A stretch of DNA of 55,792 nucleotides from positions 1 through 55,792 of IMG/VR virus record IMGVR_UViG_3300032288_001605; one strand, written 5' to 3'. A program made the translations under genes and the position numbers. Shown piece after piece: positions 27,632 to 49,777 of this stretch (the first letter of the stretch is position 1; each line of letters begins with the position of its first letter). The DNA is from a virus. Lineage: Duplodnaviria > Caudoviricetes. The notes below the pieces were generated by a model. It saw only the letters and a program-made list of their open reading frames with translations, was not told where the DNA came from and ran no database searches.

Positions 27632-27644
27632 TGAAAGGGAAATC

Positions 27645-28316
27645 ATGGAAAACGAATTAAGTATTAATCAAGCACTGATTGAAGTTATGAAGACTGTAGG
27701 TGCTATCGCAAAGAAAGACCGTAATCAATCACAAGGATTTAATTTCCGTGGAATTGATTCAGTAGTCAACGCAGTATCTCCAGCATTTCAAAAGTACGGA
27801 GTTATTGCGACTCCAGATGTTTTGGATTACTCCTATGAAACTGTTGAGATTGGAAAGAATCGAACAGCGATGGGTCACGTTAGATTGCAAGTGGCTTACA
27901 CGTTTCATGGACCAAAGGGCGATTTCATTACTACGACAGTAGGAGCCGAAGCCATGGATTCGGGTGATAAGGCAACTGCTAAGGCTATGTCTGTCGCCTT
28001 TCGAACTGCATTACTACAAACGTTATGTCTGCCAACAGACGATGTTGACCCTGATGCAAGTTCATACGAGCGCTCGAGTGCAGATGACGTTCTCTCGCCA
28101 AGTGGATTGCTTGTCAAAATCTCTGGAGCAACAGATATGGAGTCTCTTGCAAAGGTTGGTCAATACATAACCCAAAACAAAGACAAGTATCACGCAGAGC
28201 AACTTGAACAATTCCGAGCACACTTTAAGGCTCAACAATTGAAAATCAATCCACCTAAATTGGAAGAGGAAACCAATGCGGAAACAAACACAGAAACTCT
28301 TGGAGTTAATGCCTGA
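27645..28316 (+). CDS. ERF-family single-strand annealing protein
   Basis: FNFRGIDSV, DSGDKATAKAMS-x-A-x-R and DPD motifs. Confidence 0.85.
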   Translation: MENELSINQALIEVMKTVGAIAKKDRNQSQGFNFRGIDSVVNAVSPAFQKYGVIATPDVLDYSYETVEIGKNRTAMGHVRLQVAYTFHGPKGDFITTTVGAEAMDSGDKATAKAMSVAFRTALLQTLCLPTDDVDPDASSYERSSADDVLSPSGLLVKISGATDMESLAKVGQYITQNKDKYHAEQLEQFRAHFKAQQLKINPPKLEEETNAETNTETLGVNA

Positions 28317-28668
28317 GTTGCCCTATGCGGGAACTTCAGGATTTAGCGGGACAGATACAAGCGAGAACAGAGCGCGTAGCGCGGATGCCGATGGCAAAAC
28401 CGCGTTACGTCAAAAACAAGCCATTGAGTTCATTTCAGGTCGGGGTCACTTTGGCTCGACATGGAAAGAGTTAGCCGATGTGTTGCGATTGCATCATGGA
28501 AGCGCCTCTGGTGTATTGTCCGTCCTCCACAAAACAGGACATTTAGTAAGGCTCAAAGAGACTCGAGACGCTTGTAAAGTTTATGTGAGTCCTAATTTTG
28601 TGGCTAACAGACCAAGTGAAGTTTTCGGGCGCAAAAAATCATGCCCGCATTGTGGAGGTAATTTGTGA
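28309..28668 (+). CDS. wHTH DNA-binding protein
   Basis: GSTWKELA...HHGSASGVLSVLH; C-terminal CPHCG. Confidence 0.65.
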   Translation: MPELPYAGTSGFSGTDTSENRARSADADGKTALRQKQAIEFISGRGHFGSTWKELADVLRLHHGSASGVLSVLHKTGHLVRLKETRDACKVYVSPNFVANRPSEVFGRKKSCPHCGGNL

Positions 28669-31159: not shown

Positions 31160-31166
31160 TGAGATT

Positions 31167-31242
31167 GCGGGGATGGTGTAATGCAAACACAACTAACCTT
31201 CCAGTTAGATGATGGCGGTTCGATTCCGACCTCTCCGCTCCA
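31167..31242 (+). tRNA. Non-canonical tRNA-Gly(UCC)-like element overlapping the mom-like start codon
   Basis: 76-nt cloverleaf: acceptor GCGGGGA/TCTCCGC, U discriminator and encoded CCA; D stem GTGT/ACAC; CTAAC/GTTAG stem with 6-nt CTTCCA loop; T loop TTCGATT on a bulged stem. Confidence 0.8.
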
Positions 31243-31864
31243 AAAAACAGATGCGGTAATTAAACCTATTTCATATCAACTCGCAATGGAAATTGTGGTT
31301 GAGCGGCATTATCTCCATAGAACGGCTCCCGTGAGTCACGCATTCGGGTTATTCCTTCCAGATGTCATAGAGCCTTTCGGTGTCGTTACCTATGGTGTGA
31401 GTCCCTCATCGACATTATTGCGAGGAATCTGTGGGGATGAAGAAAAGCAAAATGTGTATGAGTTGAATCGTTTATGGGTAGATGACAGATTGCAAAAGAA
31501 TGCGGAGAGTTTCTTAGTGAGTCGGAGCATGAAATTTCTTGATAAGGAAATCATTGTGTCGTTCGCCGATACAGCGCAGAATCATTTAGGAGTTATTTAT
31601 CAAGCCTGTAATTTTCTATACACAGGATTATCGAGCAAGTTCAAAGACCCAAAAATTGAAGGCATTGAAGGGCATCACGCAACATACGCTCATGGTCTGA
31701 CAAATGAGGAAGTCGTGGAGAAGTTCGGAAACAAAGTCTCATTCGTTGAGCGCTCGCGCAAGCATCGTTATATTTATTTCAACGCCAAGGGAAAAAGGCG
31801 AGAAGAATTGATTTCTAAATTACGGTATCCAGTTTTGCCATATCCAAAGGCGGCAGTTCAATGA
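31181..31864 (+). CDS. mom: Mu Mom-like DNA adenine modification enzyme
   Basis: HY, GVVTYG, ELNRLW, NAES, SFAD, G-x-IYQA-x-NF-x-Y-x-G, RYIYF and terminal PYPK follow the Mom motif order. Confidence 0.8.
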   Translation: MQTQLTFQLDDGGSIPTSPLQKTDAVIKPISYQLAMEIVVERHYLHRTAPVSHAFGLFLPDVIEPFGVVTYGVSPSSTLLRGICGDEEKQNVYELNRLWVDDRLQKNAESFLVSRSMKFLDKEIIVSFADTAQNHLGVIYQACNFLYTGLSSKFKDPKIEGIEGHHATYAHGLTNEEVVEKFGNKVSFVERSRKHRYIYFNAKGKRREELISKLRYPVLPYPKAAVQ

Positions 31865-33059: not shown

Positions 33060-33614
33060 ATGAGTTCAAAAGATACTACTAAGCCTACGAAGGCTAAGAA
33101 AGCCCCTGCCCCTAAAGAGACTAAGACCAAGATTGAAACAAGAGGTCGCAAGACTGAGTTAAAAGAAGAAATAATAGAAAACATTATGAAGCATATCCGT
33201 AAGGGTATCCCTATTAAGACTGCCGTAGGCATGGCTGGTATCTCTGAAAGTACCTTTTTTAGTTGGATGAAAAGGGGTAATGATGAGCAATATCGGATAA
33301 GCAAAGGGGAAAAGCCCAATCCGAAAGAAACTTTATTTCTGGAATTTCTGGAGTCTGCTACGCGGGCGAGAGAAGAGGCTAAGGGCGCTCATATAGGGGT
33401 TATAGCCAATGCTGGAGCGCAAGGAGATTGGCGAGCCTCTGCATGGTGGCTATCCCGCCAATTCAGAGAAGAGTTCGGCGATAACCCAACACCTCAAGTA
33501 AATAACATAACTAACAACACGCTCAATATCGGCACAAGCATGTCTGAATTACAGACCCTTATCGCTGAAATCAAAGAGCGACGAATAAGGGTTATTGATG
33601 CCCCGTCTGATTGA
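33060..33614 (+). CDS. Terminase small subunit
   Basis: RGRKT...AGISESTFFSW...DWRASAWWLSR; directly before TerL. Confidence 0.75.
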   Translation: MSSKDTTKPTKAKKAPAPKETKTKIETRGRKTELKEEIIENIMKHIRKGIPIKTAVGMAGISESTFFSWMKRGNDEQYRISKGEKPNPKETLFLEFLESATRAREEAKGAHIGVIANAGAQGDWRASAWWLSRQFREEFGDNPTPQVNNITNNTLNIGTSMSELQTLIAEIKERRIRVIDAPSD

Positions 33615-35196
33615 TGAGTTCTATTCGCTGACCGATGAAGAGCAAGAAGCATTAGCGGAGGTCATGACGGATGAGCAAAAAGATACTCTCGCCTTACTTC
33701 TCAACGCAGAGAAAACAAACCCATGGGCTAAATACGAATCCGACCCAGTAGCATTTATTGAACATGGATTAGGTGAAACTCTTTGGTCTAAACAGCGAGA
33801 GATTCTTGAGAGCGTTAGAGATAACAAACGAACAGCAGTTCCCGCATGTCACGCTCCCGGAAAGTCTCACCTTGCCGCAAGAGCCGTTGCATGGTGGATG
33901 TCAGTTCATCCTCCCGGAACCGCAATTGCAATTACAACAGCGACAACTTTCAAACAAGTAAGAAATATTATGTGGGCGCAGATTCGTAGAGTTCACATGT
34001 CACATAATCTTCCGGGAGAAATTCTTACTACTGAATGGAAGATGGATGACACAGTTGTTGCCTATGGATTTCGTCCAGCCGATAACAATGAAGCGGCGCT
34101 ACAGGGTATCCACGCACCTAATCTTTTAATTGTGGTCGATGAAGCGGGTGGTATTTCAGACACAATCGGTCAAGCAATGGAAGCGCTCATGACGGGTGGA
34201 AACACAAGACTTCTTGTAGTTGGTAACCCACCGACTGACCAAGAGCAGACATGGTTCGAACGTATCTGTAATTCGCCTCTCTATAACACGATTTCTATTT
34301 CCGCTTTCGATACTCCAAACTTCACGGGAGAAGAGGCGGGTGATTGCAAGTCATGTCCGCAAACTACGGGCGCTCATTCAGTTTCATCACACTTAGTCGA
34401 TGAGCGATGGGTCAAAGATGTCATGTCGGAGTTCGGCGATGATTCGCCATTCGTTGAGGCTCGCGTCCATGCAAGATTTCCACAAACAGGAACAGGAAAG
34501 GTCATTCCGTATCAATGGGCTGAAGCCTCGATTGATAACGAGAGTCCACTTGAGGGCAACGAGATACGACTTGGAGTGGATATCGCTTCAGATGGTGGCG
34601 ATGAATTCGTTATCGCAAAAGCCGATGGATTCTCGGTCAAGATAGTTCACCGCTCTTCTGGGTCGGTCAATGCCAATGCCGTTGACGTTGCGGGGGTAAT
34701 CCTTCGCTTCATTCAAAGTGCGCAAGAGGAGCATGAGGCAAAGGGCATAAGTAAGCGCGTAAGGGTCAAAATAGACACGATTGGAGTTGGCTGGGGTGTT
34801 GTATCCATGCTCAAGACATGGGGGCAGGAGAGACGCCATAACGCCGAGATAATCGCTATCAATGTGGCAGAGCGTCCGAAAGACCAAACTAAATTCAAGA
34901 ATCAAAGAGCCGAGATGTGGTGGAATGCTCGCTCCCTTCTACAGCCAAGCGCTGAAGGTCGCCAAGATATCCGCCTCGAGGTCGACAGAGCAGTTCTAGC
35001 CCAGTTAGCAGGTCCAACCTATCTTTCAGATTCCTCGGGTCGTATCCAGATTGAATCAAAAGCCGATATGAAGAAGCGTGGCGTCTCCTCACCTGACCGC
35101 GCTGAAGCGATACTTCTCGCCTTGTATGAGAATAAGAATATAGTTGCGAGCATTAATCCGATTTCGATAGGACAGAGTAATCAGTGGAGCATGTAA
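33598..35196 (+). CDS. terL: Terminase large subunit
   Basis: ACHAPGKS (Walker A), IVVDEA (Walker B), GNP, LGVDIA, SPDRAEA. Confidence 0.9.
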   Translation: MPRLIDEFYSLTDEEQEALAEVMTDEQKDTLALLLNAEKTNPWAKYESDPVAFIEHGLGETLWSKQREILESVRDNKRTAVPACHAPGKSHLAARAVAWWMSVHPPGTAIAITTATTFKQVRNIMWAQIRRVHMSHNLPGEILTTEWKMDDTVVAYGFRPADNNEAALQGIHAPNLLIVVDEAGGISDTIGQAMEALMTGGNTRLLVVGNPPTDQEQTWFERICNSPLYNTISISAFDTPNFTGEEAGDCKSCPQTTGAHSVSSHLVDERWVKDVMSEFGDDSPFVEARVHARFPQTGTGKVIPYQWAEASIDNESPLEGNEIRLGVDIASDGGDEFVIAKADGFSVKIVHRSSGSVNANAVDVAGVILRFIQSAQEEHEAKGISKRVRVKIDTIGVGWGVVSMLKTWGQERRHNAEIIAINVAERPKDQTKFKNQRAEMWWNARSLLQPSAEGRQDIRLEVDRAVLAQLAGPTYLSDSSGRIQIESKADMKKRGVSSPDRAEAILLALYENKNIVASINPISIGQSNQWSM

Positions 35197-36302: not shown

Positions 36303-36541
36303 GCTAATACCCTCTCCCATGTCTCAGTTTCGTCATTGAATATCTTCCAACCTATCTGTCGTAGGTCTGAATCAGTTACAGTGAATGGCGCTTCGACTGC
36401 ACGAAGTTTGTATCCTGACCACCATCCGTAAGTTTCATTTCGCTTAGGTAGTTCGAGCACGATATATGTAGTGCCGAGATTAGCCATGTCTGAATAGCGA
36501 ACGACAGAGCCAATCTGTGCCATGAGTTGAGGTGTCGTCAT
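36299..36541 (-). CDS. Hypothetical protein
   Basis: GAGG RBS; ATGA coupling. Confidence 0.55.
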   Translation of the reverse strand: MTTPQLMAQIGSVVRYSDMANLGTTYIVLELPKRNETYGWWSGYKLRAVEAPFTVTDSDLRQIGWKIFNDETETWERVLA

Positions 36542-36945
36542 GCGAACACCTCTTCCTCTTGTGGCTCGACTCCGAATGTTGTTTCATAGAGGAAACGTCC
36601 ACCCTCCCAGTCATCCCAATTCCCATCGCTTTTGATTGTGATGTCATCGCCAAAGATTTTCTTGGCATGAATCAAAACCGCAACTACCGCCATGTCGTAA
36701 GGCTTGCCAGCAGTTTTGCAGAAATTGAATTCCTCAAGAGTCTTCTCAAAGATGAATGACTCATGACCTAACTCATTCGGTCCATTGAAGGAAACGTAAT
36801 TGGCTGGACTTGAATCCACCTCTAAATCAATTCCTGCATCAATGGCTATTTCAATGATTTGTTTTACGCCTTCTTGAAACGTATGAAACTTAACGTAATC
36901 AAGCGTGATGCCGCCTTTTGTCTTCCAGTAGTGGGTATATCCCAT
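36538..36945 (-). CDS. Conserved phage early protein (MGYTHYW...FCKT-x-x-KPYD...SDG)
   Basis: Own promoter and GAAAGGGG RBS. Confidence 0.7.
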   Translation of the reverse strand: MGYTHYWKTKGGITLDYVKFHTFQEGVKQIIEIAIDAGIDLEVDSSPANYVSFNGPNELGHESFIFEKTLEEFNFCKTAGKPYDMAVVAVLIHAKKIFGDDITIKSDGNWDDWEGGRFLYETTFGVEPQEEEVFA

Positions 36946-36970
36946 TTCTATCCCCTTTCTTTCAGTTCTG

Positions 36971-37330: not shown

Positions 37331-37837
37331 TTATGCTACCGCCTTTTCTTTTGCTAACTCGGTGATTGCTTTCAACACTTCGATTGGCAATTCGCGAACC
37401 TCGGTGTATCCGCTCAATCTGTGACCGCTAATCGCTTCAACCGCTTCAATGAATTCCTTGTAGGCTGGTTGATAAACCTTCTCTTGGAATTCTTGTCTTT
37501 CGGCTTTGGCAATTGCCGCTTTGTTTTGAGCGATTTTTTGTTGAGCCTCGTATTCTGCTCTCTGAACTTCATACTCTGCCCAAGGAATGAACAACTGGCT
37601 CAACTGGACAACTTTGCTTATCCAGCGAAGTTCTGTCTCGTATCCGTATCGAACCGCAACTTTTACTTTCACGCCCAAGCCTGTTCCTCTTTGAGCAATT
37701 TCGCCGTAACGCCACTGCTCATGAGGCTCGACCGCTTCGATGACTACTTTTTCGTATCCATAGTTTCCGATGTAGTGGCTACGGCTTCTGTTGTAAGCCC
37801 ATTCTTGACCCACTACCAACTGATTTCTTTTTGCCAT
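37331..37837 (-). CDS. Hypothetical early protein
   Basis: Own promoter and GAAAGGGGG RBS. Confidence 0.7.
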   Translation of the reverse strand: MAKRNQLVVGQEWAYNRSRSHYIGNYGYEKVVIEAVEPHEQWRYGEIAQRGTGLGVKVKVAVRYGYETELRWISKVVQLSQLFIPWAEYEVQRAEYEAQQKIAQNKAAIAKAERQEFQEKVYQPAYKEFIEAVEAISGHRLSGYTEVRELPIEVLKAITELAKEKAVA

Positions 37838-37861
37838 TTCGTCCCCCTTTCGGACAAGTCC

Positions 37862-40188: not shown

Positions 40189-41124
40189 TCAGAGCAAAAC
40201 GCGCTCTGTAGGCAGAGCCATAAGCCCGAGTGCGGCGGCTTTCCATAGGCTGGGAGTTTCATCATCGGGTTGATATCCGCCTGACCCGCCCATAAGAATC
40301 GGGTGGTCTGGGAATTGCTTACGTATTGTCCGCATCGCTGACCAGTATCCAAGTTCGGTGTATTCCAAACTTGATAGCGGGTCTTTCTTGAGACCATCGG
40401 CTCCAGCGGCTACGAAAATCATCGTAGGTTGGAATTCGTTGCACAGTTCAAGAAACATATCGACAGCGGCAAACAAACCGTCATCGCCAGTTTTTGCGGC
40501 TACTGGATAGTTGTAAGCCCGATTCTTGTAATCAGATAAAAGACCAGTCCCCGGAAATATCCCATATTCGTGAACGCTGAATGTAAGAACATTTTTATTG
40601 CGTCGGGTTAAATCTTCCGTCCCGTCTCCATGGTGAGCATCTGCATCAAAGATTGCAATGCGTTGCTCATATTCGTTAGTTGCCTTCTTAGCGGCAATAG
40701 CGAAATCATTAAAGACACAGAATCCGCTTGAGTGGTCATAAGCGGCATGATGCTTGGCTCCTGCAAGATTGATTGCAAGTTTAGTTTTCATGTCTAGCAA
40801 AGTATCGAGTGCAGTGAGAGTTCCACCGACAAATAACTTTGCAAGGTCTCCAAGGTCATGACGCGGACCGACCCATTCATCTGATTCGCCACGTATCGTT
40901 ACGTCAAAGACATAATTCAATTCGTGAACCGAGTTTAGGTCTTCAGTTGAAGGAACCTGTGGCTCAATCTCCCAGACGTTTAAGCGACGCTCTTGAGCGG
41001 CAAGCATGATGTTGTTGCGACCCTTGAGAAACCTACGACCCTGCGTAGGGTGTCGTGAGTCGAATACCCAATTAGAATATTCGGGACTATGCACAAGAAT
41101 GGCATCTTCCATATTTCTAATCAT
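40189..41124 (-). CDS. Zn-dependent histone deacetylase / AcuC-family deacetylase
   Basis: HP, GAKHHA, GFCVFND, DADAHHGDGT, SVHE, FPGTG, GADG-x-x-x-DPL and GGSGGY. Confidence 0.92.
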   Translation of the reverse strand: MIRNMEDAILVHSPEYSNWVFDSRHPTQGRRFLKGRNNIMLAAQERRLNVWEIEPQVPSTEDLNSVHELNYVFDVTIRGESDEWVGPRHDLGDLAKLFVGGTLTALDTLLDMKTKLAINLAGAKHHAAYDHSSGFCVFNDFAIAAKKATNEYEQRIAIFDADAHHGDGTEDLTRRNKNVLTFSVHEYGIFPGTGLLSDYKNRAYNYPVAAKTGDDGLFAAVDMFLELCNEFQPTMIFVAAGADGLKKDPLSSLEYTELGYWSAMRTIRKQFPDHPILMGGSGGYQPDDETPSLWKAAALGLMALPTERVLL

Positions 41125-41176
41125 TCGTTTCCCCTTTCGATTATTAACCCCAGTTTATAGTAAATTTACTATAACC

Positions 41177-41368: not shown

Positions 41369-41556
41369 TACTTATCTCCCTTTGTAATCAATCCAGCATC
41401 AATGAGCGCTTGTGCAGTTCGCCCATAGTGACCTTGTAAAGACCAAGCCAATCCAGTATCAACAAGATTTTGAAACAGTTGAACAATTTCATCGTGATTC
41501 AATTCGCCTGTCTCATAAGCGATAATTTGGCTCGATAGATTTAGTGCTTTAGTCAT
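41368..41556 (-). CDS. Small conserved phage protein (LFQ-x-LVDTGLAWSLQG-x-YGRTA)
   Basis: Motif; GGAGAGG RBS. Confidence 0.7.
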   Translation of the reverse strand: MTKALNLSSQIIAYETGELNHDEIVQLFQNLVDTGLAWSLQGHYGRTAQALIDAGLITKGDK

Positions 41557-41891
41557 TTCTTTACCGCCTCTCCGAATGGAACATTTACAAAGCAACTTGC
41601 CTTGTAAGCAACCTCGCCTACCTCTGTGAAGTAGACATCCTCTTGAACACCCTTGACCTTGACCTCGCCCTTTCGAACATATTCACGGCGCACTGTCCAT
41701 GTATCCATGAAGCCTAGAGTGATTGATACTCGATATCCCTTACCTACTGGCAGTTGAACCTCGACGGTCTCACCTTCATCATTGACGATGCTGTGAACAC
41801 GACCACCTGAGATTGCTAGAACATTCATATAACCGATTTGATTAACGAGTTCTTTTGTATCAAACGTTCTGCATTGGTATTCATTCTTCAT
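41553..41891 (-). CDS. Conserved early protein (VLAISGGR...DVY-x-x-EVGE)
   Basis: Own promoter and GAAAGGGGG RBS. Confidence 0.7.
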   Translation of the reverse strand: MKNEYQCRTFDTKELVNQIGYMNVLAISGGRVHSIVNDEGETVEVQLPVGKGYRVSITLGFMDTWTVRREYVRKGEVKVKGVQEDVYFTEVGEVAYKASCFVNVPFGEAVKK

Positions 41892-41915
41892 TACGTCCCC
41901 CTTTCGGACATTCTG

Positions 41916-43324: not shown

Positions 43325-43344
43325 TTGTAATGAAAGGGGACAAC

Positions 43345-44148
43345 ATGACAGTGACAAAAGAGTTCGCGGTCAAGATTGATACGCAACTATCCGAGTTACA
43401 TCACAAGCATTGGTCCATTCTTAATGACCTAGAAAGTGCTAAAAATTCTCTGGAGTTCTATCAAAAGTATTACGCGGAAGACACAAATCGAATTGCGGAA
43501 TATCAAAAAAAGATTGAAACACTACGCAATCGTTTATTTGAAATCGGAAATCAAATTCTCGAGTTAGACGAGATTTATGACCAAGACCCATGGACAAGAG
43601 CATTTCTAGTAATCAATAGCAATGGTCACGTTCACAAGTCGAGAAATTGCTCAACATGTTTTCCGACAACTCGTTATCAATGGTTAGTTCAATATAGCAA
43701 TGACGATGAGGAAACAATTGTTGAAGATGCGGGCGAGGATGCTTGCACAATTTGTTATCCAAGCGCTCCAGCAGAAGTTTTGAATCGCCCTTCGCGAATC
43801 GTCACAGCGGACAAAATTGCTAAGGCTCAAGCAAAGGCAGAGCGTGATGCAAAGCGTGAAGCACGAATCGCTAAAGAGAAGGCGAACGCTCCTACAGCCA
43901 ACGGAGAGCCACTCAAGATTATCCGTTCGATTTACAACGACGGAAAGATTTCATACGAATGGCTCAAGACAGAGAGAAGCGCGGTAAGCCACTGGTTAAA
44001 TACAGAATCATGGGCAAAATATTCTCCACGCAAAGATTATGAGTTAGAGAATCAAAAATTGATACTCGCGAATCTTGCAGAGAAGAACGGCGTTTCACTT
44101 GAAGAGCAACTACGAATCCTGAATACTAAGTTGAAGAGGAGGGGATAA
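43345..44148 (+). CDS. Early protein with coiled coil and Zn-binding domain
   Basis: WTRAFLV...GHVH-x-x-x-x-CSTC...CTICYPSAP; GAAAGGGG RBS. Confidence 0.7.
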   Translation: MTVTKEFAVKIDTQLSELHHKHWSILNDLESAKNSLEFYQKYYAEDTNRIAEYQKKIETLRNRLFEIGNQILELDEIYDQDPWTRAFLVINSNGHVHKSRNCSTCFPTTRYQWLVQYSNDDEETIVEDAGEDACTICYPSAPAEVLNRPSRIVTADKIAKAQAKAERDAKREARIAKEKANAPTANGEPLKIIRSIYNDGKISYEWLKTERSAVSHWLNTESWAKYSPRKDYELENQKLILANLAEKNGVSLEEQLRILNTKLKRRG

Positions 44149-44805
44149 ATGACAGCCGAAATGAATGAAACTCTGAAGGAGTACGCAAAGATTATGAGTA
44201 GCACTGAGGAATTACATCCTGACCTAAAGCCATACTTTGAAGCCGATGGAGCGATGGGCTTTCCAATGCTCCGACATCCACTGGTTTACCAAGTTCCGTT
44301 TTGGTCAAATGGCATGGCGAATGAGCAATACAAAATCAAAAGTAATCAAATTGCTCAAGCGCTCAAAGATGAAGATTATGAAAAGTTTGTGTGGTTGCAT
44401 GAGCGCCCATACCGACTTGAAGCATTCATCGATATCCAATATTCGCTGAGTGATAACGGTTATTGGAAATTGCTCGGTCAGATATGGACCGATACAGAAA
44501 ACGGTTGGGCAAACATTAAACAATGGAGAGAATTGTTTAGTTCAGAAAGACCTAAGCGCGGATGGTTAATGGATTGGGATGAGCAACTCGCTTATGAATC
44601 TCTAGCCGATACCGTCACGGTCTATCGCGGATGCCAGTCGGGATTAAATGAAGATGGAATCTCATGGACACTCAAGCGAGATAAGGCTGAATGGTTCGCG
44701 ACACGATTTAGTGAAGATGGCATAGTGCTTGAAAAAGAAGTTTCAAAGCAAGACATTGTTGCCGTGTTCACTGGACGAAACGAATTTGAGGCGGTGATTT
44801 TATGA
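44149..44805 (+). CDS. Hypothetical protein, possible ADP-ribosyltransferase-like fold
   Basis: TVYRG...GISWTL...AEWFA-x-RF...EFEAVI (R-S-E-like order). Confidence 0.5.
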   Translation: MTAEMNETLKEYAKIMSSTEELHPDLKPYFEADGAMGFPMLRHPLVYQVPFWSNGMANEQYKIKSNQIAQALKDEDYEKFVWLHERPYRLEAFIDIQYSLSDNGYWKLLGQIWTDTENGWANIKQWRELFSSERPKRGWLMDWDEQLAYESLADTVTVYRGCQSGLNEDGISWTLKRDKAEWFATRFSEDGIVLEKEVSKQDIVAVFTGRNEFEAVIL

Positions 44806-44924
44806 AGTGCGAATTGTGTGGCACACAATTCCGTATCGTGACGGTCGGCAGAAAATTTATCTGCGTCGAATGCGAGAAGGATTATGCGGCTCGTCAGTTT
44901 GGAATAATTACCAACAAGGGTTAG
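44802..44924 (+). CDS. Small Zn-finger peptide (not in ORF track)
   Basis: MKCELCG...CVECE; ATGA coupling. Confidence 0.5.
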   Translation: MKCELCGTQFRIVTVGRKFICVECEKDYAARQFGIITNKG

Positions 44925-44948
44925 AATAAGAGATGAAAGGGAGGAAAT

Positions 44949-45104
44949 ATGAACTTAGACCAGTATCTTGCAAAACGAGGAATGCGATTGACCAAGAGGG
45001 GTCGCTCGCTCGTCGATAATCTCCAAGGCGTGGCAGTAGCGCTCCTAATTCTGCTCGTTTTCGGGATTGTAGGCTCCATAGAGTCGGGTAGGTGGTTTGG
45101 ATGA
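44949..45104 (+). CDS. Small membrane protein with RLTKRGR motif (not in ORF track)
   Basis: GAAAGGGAGG RBS; MNLDQYLAKRGMRLTKRGR followed by a TM helix. Confidence 0.65.
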   Translation: MNLDQYLAKRGMRLTKRGRSLVDNLQGVAVALLILLVFGIVGSIESGRWFG

Positions 45105-45208
45105 AGTCTTTATACCGAAAGATAGCCAAGAGGCTCCAGAGACGCTCTGAGGGCGTTTTAGGCTATATCTCCGAATCAGAGTTGCGCCGAATCCGTCGCC
45201 GATTCGAC

Positions 45209-45237
45209 TTGAATAACCAAGAGGAGTTTGATATACT
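45209..45237 (+). promoter_or_regulatory. Conserved cassette promoter
   Basis: TTGAAT-AACCAAGAGGAGTTTGA-TATACT. Confidence 0.8.
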
Positions 45238-45261
45238 GAAGGTGTCCGAAAGGGGGACAGA

Positions 45262-45675
45262 ATGACTCAAGTAATCGAGAAGACAAAGACTCTCGGAAAG
45301 CGTGAATGCGCTCGCATTTACAAAGAGGCTCATGAAGCGGGTCTTGCCGCTGGAGCGGCTTGTGTGCCAACTCCAATGCTAGTTGGGACACCGACCACGC
45401 CACTAGGCAACGATGTTGACTTCACAAAGAAAACCTACGTGGTTCCTACAGGAGTTTGTGGGTTTGCGTGGATAAACATTTCTCCAGCGCGAGGAGCGTT
45501 CGTTAACTATCTCAAGTCCATCAATGCGGGACACAAGGGATATTACGGAGGATACGAAGTATGGGTCAGAGGGTTTGGACAGTCTTACGAACAAAAGATT
45601 GCCTATGCTCACGCTTTCGCTGAAGTGTGCAAAATCTACGGAATCAATGCTTACGGAAGTGGGCGCCTAGACTAA
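45262..45675 (+). CDS. Conserved phage early protein (CGFAW...QS...K-x-AYA-x-AFA...RLD)
   Basis: Motif pattern; own promoter and RBS. Confidence 0.7.
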   Translation: MTQVIEKTKTLGKRECARIYKEAHEAGLAAGAACVPTPMLVGTPTTPLGNDVDFTKKTYVVPTGVCGFAWINISPARGAFVNYLKSINAGHKGYYGGYEVWVRGFGQSYEQKIAYAHAFAEVCKIYGINAYGSGRLD

Positions 45676-45685
45676 GTAATACAAT

Positions 45686-45869
45686 ATTCATCCGTCGATT
45701 GAAATATATCGGCGGATGAATCGCATATACGCACAGTTTCTTACCCTTTCGTGTGCGTGTGTGTGTGAGTGGGCGCTCCCCCCTTTCAGAAGCGCTCACA
45801 GTCGGTGGAGTTGATGCTCGTTGCGTTTTTGTCCTCTCTCTAACGCATCCTTGTAGCGCCTCCACCGAC
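45686..45869 (+). ncRNA. Candidate four-hairpin sRNA with anti-Shine-Dalgarno loops
   Basis: Four adjacent stems of 9-14 bp with G-U pairs favouring the + strand; loops GTTTCTTACCCTTTCG, CCCCCCTTTCAGA and TTTGTCCTCTCTCT. Confidence 0.6.
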
Positions 45870-45913
45870 ACCTAAATTTTCTTGACAGTTATTCATCTTG
45901 GTCTGCTACCTTT

Positions 45914-46022
45914 TATCTCAAGGTTCGCATGACACCTTATTCAAAAGCGATGTTGGTCCGATACTGACAACGTTGAGATATCAGAGCCACTGATAGTTAT
46001 TCGTTCGCTCCTATTAATGGAG
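45914..46022 (+). promoter_or_regulatory. Structured 5' leader of the transglycosylase gene
   Basis: TATCTCA/TGAGATA closing stem, two inner hairpins, TCGC/GCGA pseudoknot potential; TTGACA at 45882. Confidence 0.4.
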
Positions 46023-46026
46023 GACT

Positions 46027-46482
46027 ATGCGATTCTATGAAAAACTCTATAAACCTATTCCACTAGCAGTTCTGTTTCTCGGAGTAGTTATTTTCAATCC
46101 GTTGCATGTTCCACCTGATACTCCAGCGAATGCTGAGGTCGTAGTTGCAATCAAACCGCTTCCAGTGGAGCGGACACCTGAAGCGGCTAAGGAATATGCC
46201 CGTAAAGTTCTTTATGTCTATGGCTGGGATAACGCTACGCAGTGGCAATGTCTCTTGGACCTATGGACGAAAGAATCCAATTGGCGTCCGAATGCCTACA
46301 ATAAAACACCCGTATATCAAAATGGAGAGAAACTCCATGCTGGCGGTATTCCGCAGATTCTCGGATTAGACCCCGATAGTTCCGTGGAGTTTCAAGTCGC
46401 TCAAGGCTTGAAATATATCGATTACAGATATTCCAGCCCATGCCGCGCCATGTCTTTCTGGAAAGCAAATTTCTGGTACTAG
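46027..46482 (+). CDS. Secreted lytic transglycosylase (SLT-like) protein
   Basis: N-terminal TM; QWQCL-x-x-LW-x-KESNW-x-x-x-A-x-N...GIPQ...GLKYI-x-x-RY-x-SPC-x-A...WY. Confidence 0.8.
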   Translation: MRFYEKLYKPIPLAVLFLGVVIFNPLHVPPDTPANAEVVVAIKPLPVERTPEAAKEYARKVLYVYGWDNATQWQCLLDLWTKESNWRPNAYNKTPVYQNGEKLHAGGIPQILGLDPDSSVEFQVAQGLKYIDYRYSSPCRAMSFWKANFWY

Positions 46483-46491
46483 GCTAATGGT

Positions 46492-46737
46492 GTGGAAGAT
46501 GAACAAAGTAAACCTTCGTTGATAGACGATGCGCTCGCCGAAATCGGGCGCATCGCCTTCAATGAACCTGCAATATGTACGGGTTGGGTTTTAGTATCAG
46601 AATGGTTCAATGGTTCAAAGGATTACTGGACACTCACGTTAGTTGACGATGAGCAACCAGAATGGCGTCACATGGGTCTACTGAATTATTCTTTAGTTCA
46701 ATTCAAAGAGGGGGAGCAAGATGGAAATAAAGGATAA
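46492..46737 (+). CDS. Hypothetical protein
   Basis: TGWVLVSEW...PEWRHMGLL. Confidence 0.6.
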   Translation: MEDEQSKPSLIDDALAEIGRIAFNEPAICTGWVLVSEWFNGSKDYWTLTLVDDEQPEWRHMGLLNYSLVQFKEGEQDGNKG

Positions 46738-46840: not shown

Positions 46841-47179
46841 ATGCAATCCATGGATTTTGTTGAAGATGCTCCCTGCCGTGGAGCAGACCCATGGCTATTT
46901 GACCAATCGCAATTAGCGCTGGCAATTATCGGTTTGCAATATTGCGTTGAATGCCCATTCAAACAAGAGTGCATTGAGTTGGTCGAACCAAGCAAAAATT
47001 ATTTTGATGGAATATGTGGCGGAATTGTTTGGCAAAACGGTAGGGTATTGGCTAAGTTAGATACCGAGGTTAAAAACCGTTTAATCATAGGGGGTAATGA
47101 TGACACCGAGAATGAAGATGCCGTGGCAATTCGAGGGAGCAAGTTGTTGGGGTCTGGACACGGAGATGTTCTTCCCTGA
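46841..47179 (+). CDS. whiB: WhiB-family transcription factor
   Basis: C-x-x-x-DP-x-LF...C-x-x-CP-x-x-x-x-C...GICGG. Confidence 0.75.
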   Translation: MQSMDFVEDAPCRGADPWLFDQSQLALAIIGLQYCVECPFKQECIELVEPSKNYFDGICGGIVWQNGRVLAKLDTEVKNRLIIGGNDDTENEDAVAIRGSKLLGSGHGDVLP

Positions 47180-47372
47180 TAAGGGTGGCAGTGCAAAACA
47201 GATTAAAAAGATTTGCAAATCCTGTTACTGGACGAATGAATGTCTGACCTATTCGTTACATTACAGAGTGCAAGGAATCTGGGCGGGTACAAGTCCAGAT
47301 GACCGCGACATACTAAGAAAAAAACTAAACATAATCGCTAAACCAGTCACTAACGAAAGGTTCGTCGCATGA
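47112..47372 (+). CDS. whiB: WhiB-family transcription factor
   Basis: C-x-x-x-DTEMFFP...CKSC-x-x-x-x-x-C...GIWAG-x-x-x-x-x-R. Confidence 0.85.
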   Translation: MKMPWQFEGASCWGLDTEMFFPDKGGSAKQIKKICKSCYWTNECLTYSLHYRVQGIWAGTSPDDRDILRKKLNIIAKPVTNERFVA

Positions 47373-47818
47373 GCACAATATCAATCGCAGGTAATTTAGC
47401 CGCTGACCCAGAATTGCGTTTTACGCCTAATGGAAAGGCAGTTGCAACATTCACTGTTATCTCATCTAAGTCTGTAAAGAAGGAAGATGGGACATGGGAA
47501 AACACGGACGTAACTCCGTGGACAGTTAAGTGTTGGAATAAGTTGGCAGAAAACGTTGCCGAATCTTTGAGAAAAGGAATGTCTGTAGTTGTATCTGGAA
47601 CCGCATCATGGGCATCGTGGGAAGATAAGAAAACAGGCGAGAAGCGTGGCAAGGTCGAGATAACCGCTTATAACGTAGGAGTTGACCTGAAGCGTCATAT
47701 CGTCCAAGTAATCAATTTAAGCCGTGGCAATGAAGGCGATATCAACGTTGACCCTTGGAGCCAATCGGCTTACCAATCTGCCAATTCTGCGAAAGCCCCA
47801 GAAGAGTTTCCTTTCTAA
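47369..47818 (+). CDS. ssb: Single-stranded DNA-binding protein
   Basis: GNL-x-ADPELRFTP-x-G-x-AVA...LAENVAESL-x-KG; C-terminal EEFPF. Confidence 0.92.
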   Translation: MSTISIAGNLAADPELRFTPNGKAVATFTVISSKSVKKEDGTWENTDVTPWTVKCWNKLAENVAESLRKGMSVVVSGTASWASWEDKKTGEKRGKVEITAYNVGVDLKRHIVQVINLSRGNEGDINVDPWSQSAYQSANSAKAPEEFPF

Positions 47819-48201: not shown

Positions 48202-48354
48202 GTGTATGACGACTTCATTAAACGTGATGGCGTTATGTCTGTCCTATCGACTTTTGCTATCCAGACTCATGAATTATTTTCAGAGTTGATGAGAGCAGGA
48301 TTCACAGAGGAACAGGCTTTGAAGATTGTCATTGGATTATTCGCAAGGGATTAG
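48202..48354 (+). CDS. Small conserved protein (HELF-x-x-L-x-x-AGFTEEQAL), not in ORF track
   Basis: TATAAT just upstream of a GTG start; motif. Confidence 0.55.
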   Translation: MYDDFIKRDGVMSVLSTFAIQTHELFSELMRAGFTEEQALKIVIGLFARD

Positions 48355-48364
48355 GACGAGGTAT

Positions 48365-49777
48365 ATGGCACAGCCTGATTTTAAGGAACTCGGTTCTACT
48401 GGTTTACGTCGCTCGGGCGGAACAGTATTTGAAGAGTTTCTTACGACGCTCCGCGGAATCCGCGGCTCTCGCGTTTATCGAGAGATGGCTGATAACGACC
48501 CAACTATCGGCTCAATGTTATTTGCGATTGAGAAAGTTATTACTCGTCTTGAATGGCGTGTAGACCCATACAGCGATAGTTCGGCAGATGGCGATGTAAG
48601 TCCAGAGGATAAAGAAGTAGCAGATTTTGTTGAATCATGTTTGAACGATATGTCCGATTCATGGGACCAGACATTGACACAAATGCTTTCAATGTTGGTT
48701 TTTGGATATTCATATCACGAAATTGTTTATAAGAGACGTGGCGGCGATACTAACGATGCTAAGACTCGTTCTAAGTTCGATGATGGAAAAATTGGATGGC
48801 GTAAGTTGCCAATCCGTTCACAAGAAACTTTGTTCCGTTGGAATATTGATGATGACGGCGGAATCCAAGGAATGGTGCAAGTAGACCCATCCGCTGGAGG
48901 CATTCATACAATTCCAATCGAGAAGGCTTTGCTATTCCGCACGACCACTCAAAAGAATAACCCTGAAGGTCGTTCAATTCTTCGTAATGCTTATCGCCCT
49001 TGGTATTTCAAGCGCCGTATTGAAGAGATTGAAGCAATTGGTATCGAGCGCGATTTAGCGGGTCTTCCAGTTGCCTACGTTCCACCTGAGTTTCTATCGA
49101 GCACCGCTTCAGTTGACCAACAACAAGTTTTGCAGAGCATTATCTCTATTGTTCAAAACGTTAAGCGTAATGAGCAAGAGGGCGTTGTTATGCCAGCGAT
49201 GTACGACGAGGCTGGTCACAAGATGTTCGACCTTCAGTTGCTCTCATCTGGAGGTTCACGTCAATTTGATACCGACAAAGTAATTCAGCGCTATGACCAA
49301 CGCATGGCGATGTCGATTCTTTCTGACTTTATTCTTCTCGGTCATGACCGCGTAGGTTCATACGCACTCGGTTCATCAAAGATGGACTTATGGTCAATGG
49401 CGGTAGATGCAATTGCAAAGAGCATTGCAGAAGTTATGAATCAGTACGCAATTCCTCGTTTGTTAAAACTAAACGGAATGGATACTTCTCGTTCTCCATA
49501 TTTAACATACGGTGAAGTAAGCCATGTTGATTTAACAGAGATTGCAGATTTCGTAACGAAACTTGCTCAATCTGGAGTTCTCGTTCCAGACCCAAAGTTG
49601 GAAGATTACTTACGCGACTTAGCGGGATTGCCACCAGCCGAACACGATGGACAAAACTTCGGAATGCCTCCAATGCCTAGCGACGTTGGTATGGAACCCG
49701 GGGAAGTTCAAACGGGTCAACCTGAGCAGTTAGATATCGCTGAGGGAACGGAACCACTTGATGGCGACTTGGATTAA
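48365..49777 (+). CDS. Portal protein (Mu gp29/DUF935-like)
   Basis: FGYSYHEIVYK, NNPEGRSILR-x-AY-x-x-W-x-FK, GIERDLAGLP and GSYAL motifs; GAGG RBS before ATG 48365. Confidence 0.88.
   Translation: MAQPDFKELGSTGLRRSGGTVFEEFLTTLRGIRGSRVYREMADNDPTIGSMLFAIEKVITRLEWRVDPYSDSSADGDVSPEDKEVADFVESCLNDMSDSWDQTLTQMLSMLVFGYSYHEIVYKRRGGDTNDAKTRSKFDDGKIGWRKLPIRSQETLFRWNIDDDGGIQGMVQVDPSAGGIHTIPIEKALLFRTTTQKNNPEGRSILRNAYRPWYFKRRIEEIEAIGIERDLAGLPVAYVPPEFLSSTASVDQQQVLQSIISIVQNVKRNEQEGVVMPAMYDEAGHKMFDLQLLSSGGSRQFDTDKVIQRYDQRMAMSILSDFILLGHDRVGSYALGSSKMDLWSMAVDAIAKSIAEVMNQYAIPRLLKLNGMDTSRSPYLTYGEVSHVDLTEIADFVTKLAQSGVLVPDPKLEDYLRDLAGLPPAEHDGQNFGMPPMPSDVGMEPGEVQTGQPEQLDIAEGTEPLDGDLD

Follow-up and report, generated by a model that had tools for sequence, protein, structure and literature searches.

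A conserved hairpin array in putative actinophages displays loops complementary to extended ribosome-binding sites of the same genomes

The 6C small RNA (sRNA) of Actinobacteria binds G-rich ribosome-binding sites (RBSs) with its C-rich loops, loop to loop or loop to unpaired RNA, and does so without a chaperone (PMC6486639). The c4 RNA of phages P1 and P7 carries loops complementary to an RBS region of the same phage and blocks translation there, differences in loop and target from one related phage to another providing specificity (PMC12197685); RNAIII of Staphylococcus aureus is a multi-hairpin RNA whose C-rich loops pair with the Shine-Dalgarno (SD) sequences of several mRNAs and stop their translation (PMC2837412). 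The subject of this report is an array of four back-to-back hairpins at 45686-45869 of the IMG/VR virus record IMGVR_UViG_3300032288_001605 (Duplodnaviria; Caudoviricetes). The window analysed is the whole record, 55,792 bases, with an estimated completeness of 92%; the array fills much of a 351-nt gap between a gene for a 137-residue protein (gene A, 45262-45675, + strand) and a transglycosylase-like gene (46027-46482). We give an even chance to the reading that the array is a regulatory RNA which pairs with the RBSs of genes of the phage that encodes it. Even if it should be wrong, the element is a strongly supported structured RNA motif with a near-invariant 16-nt loop. A literature search, with supplementary files outside its scope, found no paper describing such an element in actinophages.

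A first-pass annotation, made from the letters of the window, had drawn four hairpins here, and folding of the + strand from 45676 to 45900 returned exactly the same coordinates:

45686..45721, + strand: hairpin 1, 14-bp stem, loop UGAAAUAU
45722..45765, + strand: hairpin 2, 14-bp stem, loop GUUUCUUACCCUUUCG at 45736-45751, containing CCCUUUCG
45769..45799, + strand: hairpin 3, 9-bp stem, loop CCCCCCUUUCAGA at 45778-45790
45801..45869, + strand: hairpin 4, long interrupted stem, apical loop UUUGUCCUCUCUCU at 45828-45841

The minimum free energy of this fold is -85.0 kcal/mol, against -51.9 +/- 4.06 in 200 dinucleotide shuffles (z -8.15), none of which folded as well; the - strand of the same region reaches -68.5 kcal/mol (z -3.77). 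About two thirds of the element is base-paired and its loops are rich in C and U. The three pyrimidine-tract loops that had been proposed are present, in hairpins 2, 3 and 4, that of hairpin 1 being of another composition. When the whole window was scanned for 8-bp hairpins with pyrimidine loops, 12 were found on the + strand and 26 on the - strand; hairpins 2 and 3 rank among the longest-stemmed of those on the + strand, the scan being otherwise not discriminating. The gap was also said to be non-coding, and it behaves so: the only open reading frames (ORFs) that cross it are of 30-75 codons, and the sequences of relatives differ in alignment by many short gaps.

Relatives were collected with three queries: gene A, which recovered 17 related viral loci; the protein encoded downstream, from which we kept the best 80 of 511 related stretches; and a divergent homologue, from which we kept the best 80 of 499. 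Among the 81 upstream regions (80 loci and the window), both anchor motifs were present in 76 and three were too short; L058 and L076 failed the anchor motifs, and their contigs nevertheless carry the loop motif of hairpin 4. Seven loci in which the upstream stop could not be placed were left out of the alignment (L043, L045, L052, L055, L068, L069 and L078), as was L089, where a deletion takes the 3' half of hairpin 4. Collapsing duplicates gave 54 distinct arrays, which form alignment A1. In all the related phage contigs examined the array is flanked by the same pair of genes, and all the arrays listed fold by themselves into three to six back-to-back hairpins; their architecture is modular, some clades having an extra 5' hairpin and some lacking hairpin 2.

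RNAalifold, run on the 54 sequences of A1, predicted 34 pairs, of which 17 show compensatory changes, but it missed hairpin 2 owing to the alignment register and created an artefact inside hairpin 3. The structure tested on A1 was registered by hand and has 48 pairs. Standard pairs are formed in 95.4% of its cells, and changes on both sides occur at 25 of the 48 pairs, in 183 cells; not one of 500 shuffles reached any of five measures, and controls in which the structure was slid along the alignment gave at most 41% paired cells and at most 12 pairs. The covariation is carried by hairpins 1, 2 and 4, with compensatory changes at 7 of 11 pairs in hairpin 1 (helices 1-2, about 95% of cells paired), 8 of 9 in hairpin 2 (helix 4) and 9 of 20 in hairpin 4 (helices 6-7, 97-99% of cells paired). 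In hairpin 3 (helix 5, majority register) one pair in seven covaries and the 3' arm is almost invariant. G.U pairs greatly outnumber A.C mismatches, 269 to 30 among 2487 cells, and for this reason we assign the structure to the + strand and consider that it behaves like RNA; the G-U bias first noticed in the window thus extends to its relatives.

Rfam (release 15) gave no match at gathering score, whether for the window or for 12 related loci, and with E values admitted up to 10 the region 45600-46100 gave two chance-level matches only, to unrelated eukaryotic families. The 20-mer of the hairpin 4 loop occurs in at least 104 viral contigs, as a single copy in the contigs listed except for one duplicated case; no copy was found when 185,579 prokaryotic species were scanned with one genome per species.

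Some loci depart from the common plan. One (L085) repeats most of hairpin 4 in a tandem duplication, and in L089 the deletion runs from the hairpin 4 loop to the -10 region; either the element tolerates rearrangement or these are assembly artefacts. In three loci (L090, at 2078-2176, L096 and L254) gene A is separated from the array by the same unrelated, structured insert, about 90 nt long, composed of a closing 9-bp stem and two internal hairpins, and without an Rfam match in L090, the copy scanned. In the hairpin 3 of most relatives the 3' arm (columns 138-147 of A1) contains a near-invariant palindromic octamer, GGGTACCC, while the 5' arm that pairs with it varies; the octamer may be constrained by something besides pairing.

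If the loops do the work, they should be kept in relatives, as the first-pass annotation had required, and three of the four are. Mean identity of the hairpin 4 loop is 0.95 (minimum 0.87), against 0.84 for its inner stem; the corresponding values are 0.86 and 0.82 for hairpin 1 and, taking the 3' part of the loop, 0.82 and 0.76 for hairpin 2. Hairpin 3 is the other way about, with 0.67 in the loop and 0.91 in the stem. Because loop identity exceeds stem identity in hairpins 1, 2 and 4, these three loops are, on the evidence of the alignment, selected as sequence, which a terminator or stability element alone would not need. The loop of hairpin 4, most often GUCCGUCCUCUCUCUA in relatives, is the most conserved part of the element. 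That of hairpin 1 is (U)CUCUUCUUAG in most relatives, and every hairpin 2 loop listed has CCUUUC or, in a few, CCUUCC or CCCUUC. Hairpin 3 of most relatives differs from that of the window, having a GGGUAYC/GGUACCC stem and a loop such as AUUUACGCG; the C-rich type, CCCC(CC)UUUC, was seen in the window's clade only.

The RBSs that these loops might meet were compared in the window and five complete relatives of 58-61 kb (G001-G005). Gene calls were crude, being the longest non-overlapping ORFs with the start placed by best pairing to an assumed anti-SD motif. Each of the six genomes has two classes of SD: AGGAG or GGAGG on most structural genes, and a long GARAGGR type on many non-structural ones. 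The long tracts are variants of (U)AGAGAGGA(G/C) in the five relatives and GAAAGGGG(G) in the window. GAAAGGGG occurs 11 times in the window, five of them in called RBSs, and zero to one time in each relative by either count; AGAGAGG is found in no called RBS of the window and in three to eight of each relative. Seven purine-rich sites had been picked out by eye in the window, and all seven are GAAAGGGG(G) or (U/C)GAAAGGG: 36952-59(-), 37843-51(-), 38274-81(-), 41131-38(-), 41897-905(-), 43331-39(+) and 45248-56(+). Those beginning at 36952, 41131, 41897, 43331 and 45248 lie about 10 nt before a called gene start, and the other two (37843, 38274) precede ORFs that were replaced in the final gene calls. 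Sites of this kind are as follows, the first six being candidate targets:

45244..45258, + strand: RBS cassette GUCC-GAAAGGG-GGAC of gene A (45262-45675)
41895..41909, - strand: identical GUCC-GAAAGGG-GGAC cassette of gene 41553-41891 (-)
41131..41139, - strand: CGAAAGGGG RBS of gene 40189-41124 (-), 8-nt complement of the hairpin 2 and hairpin 3 loops
36952..36959, - strand: GAAAGGGG RBS of gene 36538-36945 (-)
37843..37851, - strand: GAAAGGGGG, 6 nt before ORF 37331-37837 (-)
43331..43339, + strand: UGAAAGGGG RBS of gene 43345-44148 (+)
27632..27639, + strand: UGAAAGGG RBS of gene 27645-28316 (+)

The site before gene A is an exact complement of the hairpin 3 loop over 9 nt, where the anti-SD motif matches 6 nt, and is predicted to lie in the loop of a small hairpin (-6.7 kcal/mol). 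Such cassettes, with the SD in a 7-nt loop closed by a 4-5-bp stem, recur at many sites in G001-G005 too; the stem varies in compensating fashion between genes and clades (GUCC/GGAC, GUCU/AGAC, GUUC/GAAC). Elsewhere in the window an inverted repeat at 460-493, just after gene 71-448, forms a hairpin with UGAAAGGGG and its complement as arms; it is the only other + strand site of the GAAAGGGG complement outside the array and the - strand gene block.

Taking the longest contiguous exact complement as the measure, we found that the loops match many non-structural genes of the same phage at the RBS, as had been proposed, and often over more contiguous bases than the anti-SD motif does. In the window the GAAAGGGG(G) sites are complementary over 8-9 nt to the hairpin 3 loop and over up to 8 nt to that of hairpin 2. 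In relatives the long RBSs are complementary over 7-11 nt to the hairpin 4 loop, and where that match is of 10-11 nt, as elsewhere, the contiguous match to the anti-SD motif is of 4-6 nt; the 223-residue counterparts of gene 27645-28316, for example, have the RBS UAGAGAGAGG(A), a 10-11-nt complement of their own hairpin 4 loop. The 15 SD-led genes of the window within 10.5 kb upstream of the array have a mean longest complement of 6.67 nt to their own loops, and five of them reach at least 8 nt. Against the five relatives' loop sets these genes score 5.53-5.87 nt, and against the anti-SD motif alone 5.40 nt, no gene reaching 8 nt in either case; with shuffled loops the mean is 5.13 +/- 0.34 nt, and none of 300 shuffles attained the observed value. 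The relatives' genes score about equally with their own loop sets and with foreign ones, since every genome, the window included, keeps the hairpin 4 loop. When the six genomes, which are related to one another, are pooled, RBSs with a complement of at least 7 nt are more frequent within 10.5 kb upstream of the array (41/130) than elsewhere (65/469; Fisher p 1.3e-5).

Loop type and RBS type also occur together. The RBS of gene A, recovered for 49 of the 54 arrays, finds an exact complement of at least 7 nt in its own array in 40 of them. All six distinct arrays of the window's clade combine GUCC-GAAAGGG-GGAC with a hairpin 3 loop containing CCCC(C)UUU(C/U), a pairing of 9-10 nt, which no loop set outside the clade (0/43) attains. 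The clade's RBS type and C-rich loop thus go together. At least five window genes have a switched RBS type relative to their apparent counterparts, which were matched by size and position only: 45262, 41553(-), 43345, 40189(-) and 27645. The relatives added by the query with the divergent homologue brought new array architectures and no further switch of RBS class, except for a one-base case, L218, in which an A replaces a G of the hairpin 4 loop; the base falls within an 11-nt exact complement to an RBS there and gives an A-U pair where other clades would have G.U. The array has two marks of an sRNA aimed at RBSs, stable hairpins with single-stranded C/U-rich loops and complementarity of those loops to several RBSs beyond chance, the latter to be read with generic SD matching and a single switch in mind.

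The downstream border of the element is marked by a promoter-like site, whose function we infer:

45882-45887 and 45907-45912, + strand: TTGACA and TACCTT separated by a 19-nt spacer, directly after hairpin 4

The -35 hexamer TTGACA is kept in most relatives and absent from 4 of 25 aligned leaders. What follows, a leader of about 110 nt before the transglycosylase-like gene (45882-46026 with the promoter-like site), is itself conserved and structured: 24 predicted pairs, nine with compensatory changes among 25 relatives, form two covarying hairpins, and a third hairpin pairs GGAGGA (46019-46024) with CUCC (46008-46011). This leader has no Rfam match and could be a second new RNA element, for example a translational switch. 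As to the array's own ends, no intrinsic terminator was found by the scan of 45676-45880. Since promoter-like site and leader begin right after hairpin 4, and no border signals are called, the array is most likely, to judge from its surroundings, the 3'-terminal part of the transcription unit upstream. In two loci of the window's clade, L022 (2143-2200) and L083 (532-589), gene A and the array have a canonical intrinsic terminator between them, with a G+C-rich stem of 14-15 bp and a UUUUU run after it; these arrays would need a start of their own or read-through. In several relatives -10-like hexamers abut the stem of hairpin 1; we rejected them as evidence of a separate promoter, because their spacing is inconsistent, they lack a common -35 and such a promoter would cut into a covarying stem.

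The array stands at the end of a rightward block of small non-structural genes (43345-45675). For the gene A product Pfam gave no family and PHROGs one weak match, of unknown function, and its Atlas neighbours are unnamed viral proteins only; nothing in its annotation suggests that it might bind RNA. Annotation of the window's ORFs with Pfam and PHROGs gave, among others:

27101: Gam-like protein
28665: replication-initiator-like protein
33598-35196: large terminase
47097-47372: WhiB-like protein
47369-47818: SSB
48326-49777: Mu-type portal

A MuF-like protein and tail-fibre-like proteins with collagen repeats are also encoded, and a scan of 40 ORF translations against Pfam or PHROGs revealed no integrase. 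Its WhiB genes point to an actinobacterial host for this phage, of 40-50% G+C, and the earlier description of it as a freshwater actinophage is plausible; blastn in 'distant' mode with 45400-46500 gave no match in the phage collection. A second WhiB-like ORF (46841-47179) overlaps 47097-47372 in another frame, so that either one of the starts was called wrongly or two WhiB genes lie side by side. ARAGORN reported a tRNA-like gene at 31166-31238, with the anticodon undetermined ('tc' at position 35), which overlaps the start of a Mom-like gene (31181-31864).

From the structure, strand, conservation, loop-RBS complementarity and clade-level co-occurrence we infer that the RNA is made and accumulates, that it pairs in the cell, that it represses rather than activates or stabilises, and that it does so at a given time. 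The array RNA would accumulate as the rightward non-structural genes are transcribed, whether as a separate small RNA, a processed piece or the 3' part of an operon transcript, and its C/U-rich loops would pair with the extended purine-rich RBSs of non-structural genes on both strands. Since many target RBSs sit in the loops of small hairpins, first contact would be loop to loop ('kissing'). Pairing and binding of the 30S subunit would then be in competition, reducing translation of the non-structural class, whose members would be early genes, judging by position and lack of structural annotations; genes with ordinary AGGAG-type sites, including most structural genes, would escape. The first-pass annotation had supposed instead that leaderless genes would be spared, an idea that finds no support here: most other genes of the window are led by ordinary AGGAG/GGAGG-type sites, so any selectivity would be between two SD classes. 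A further step is to regard the matched variants as a private translation code, in which each variant of the extended SD is answered base for base by a loop of the array, the pairs having co-evolved to be orthogonal and serving a timed early shut-off and c4-like heteroimmunity between co-infecting relatives. This we offer tentatively, as something that may be so but on which we would sooner bet the other way.

Several observations weigh against RBS pairing as the function of the array. C/U-rich loops complement any SD to some degree, and choosing starts by anti-SD pairing biases the RBS sets towards SD-like sequence. The hairpin 1 loop of the window, UGAAAUAU, is not pyrimidine-rich, and the hairpin 3 loop is poorly conserved overall. 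The window keeps its hairpin 4 loop though none of its called RBSs contains AGAGAGG; in the window alone the enrichment near the array is not significant (6/31 against 9/68, p 0.55); and 9 of the 49 arrays match the gene A RBS over 5-6 nt only. Display of long RBSs in loops is modest, 42/110 against 27% in flank-shuffled controls. The switch of loop and RBS is a single clade-level event, and the co-occurrence could therefore have arisen by descent alone. Finally, a consensus scan allowing promoter spacers of 16-18 nt, a range that excludes the 19-nt spacer of the site after hairpin 4, calls no promoter- or terminator-like site at the borders of the array, and no U run directly follows any of its stems.

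These doubts leave room for other functions. Rho-binding sites are long stretches of C-rich, G-poor and largely unstructured RNA; the loops of the array are likewise C-rich and G-poor, and the array might be a structural 3' end or insulator that stops or pauses transcription, guards mRNA from 3' exonucleases or binds Rho or an RNase, its likeness to RBS partners being incidental. Its position suits such a role, exactly between the stop of gene A and the conserved promoter-like site, and in the same place in every relative examined; moreover the terminator just upstream in L022 and L083 demonstrates selection for termination here. We nevertheless think it unlikely, since the stems lack a U run and the terminator scan is empty here, and since it leaves unexplained a 16-nt loop that keeps 0.95 identity on a stem undergoing compensatory change, the clade-specific match of C-rich loop to GAAAGGGG and the 10-11-nt RBS matches. 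The cis-acting alternative is that the array is an upstream part of the leader of 46027-46482 and, in read-through transcripts carrying both, modulates that gene's sequestered SD or its transcription. Array and gene are always adjacent, the leader is itself conserved and structured with its GGAGGA paired to an upstream CUCC, and the four aligned leaders without a -35 hexamer are perhaps reached by read-through from the array. In most relatives, however, the promoter-like site stands between the two; the leader's SD is already sequestered locally; and co-occurrence with an RBS type found on both strands up to 18 kb away would be left without a reason. We consider this reading distinctly improbable.

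Hardly better is the prospect that the RNA is directed at the host, as a phage analogue of 6C or a general anti-SD decoy binding host RNAs. The hairpin 3 loop of the window does have six consecutive C (nine in L023), like the C-rich loops of 6C (PMC6486639), and a hairpin 4 loop that is near-invariant as a whole across clades would fit a conserved host partner. Against this, no match to 6C or any other Rfam family appears at E values up to 10, and the loop peculiar to the window's clade matches a type of phage RBS that is equally peculiar to it, a match that lends nothing to SD-led host mRNAs as targets; the conservation of the hairpin 4 loop over its whole length is also accounted for by phage RBSs, because different ones match different registers of it. 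To a DNA-level element, with single-stranded hairpins at a replication origin, priming or packaging site, we allow scarcely any probability at all. A long non-coding gap dense in inverted repeats and near the SSB gene at 47369 invites the idea, but the region has no iterons or AT-rich tract, and the replication-initiator-like gene lies 17 kb away at 28665. The excess of G.U (as DNA, G.T) over A.C, 269 to 30, with G.U serving as compensatory intermediate, and the much poorer fold of the opposite strand exclude a cruciform and fit RNA energetics better than DNA.

Should the array prove to be an RBS-pairing RNA, it would represent an undescribed regulatory RNA family whose mechanism is legible from sequence, a multivalent anti-RBS RNA encoded by an actinophage, and it would explain at the sequence level why these genomes have two SD classes. 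The orthogonal pairs (C-rich loop with GAAAGGGG, CCUCUCU loop with GAGAGGA) would offer ready-made material for tests and might supply parts for controlling translation in Actinobacteria; and a private code, if true, would mean RNA-based heteroimmunity in abundant uncultured lake phages. If the RBS reading is wrong there remains a new structured RNA motif whose near-invariant 16-nt loop awaits explanation.

By the Rfam covariance models the element is neither a homologue nor a member of 6C, c4 or RNAIII: neither the 6C family nor the c4 antisense RNA family is matched in the window and 12 related loci, nor at E values up to 10 on 45600-46100. The resemblances are of design. RNAIII, with which the array was first compared, shares the multi-hairpin form and C-rich anti-SD loops, but it belongs to another phylum, has no homology to the array, codes for a peptide and possesses a promoter and a terminator that are well defined, features not seen in the array. 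The 6C sRNA (B11) is alike in host phylum, in opposing C-rich hairpin loops to G-rich RBSs that are often themselves looped, and in having several targets. Our element differs from it in being phage-encoded and known here from sequence, in its three to six hairpins and in its mixed C/U loops (CCUUUC, CCUCUCU), pure C runs being found in the window's clade only, and its candidate targets are the phage's own genes. With c4 the difference lies in reach, for c4 has one target region just downstream in its own operon, whereas the candidates here are many, dispersed and on both strands; the clade-specific pairing of loop and RBS, on the other hand, resembles the logic of c4 heteroimmunity.

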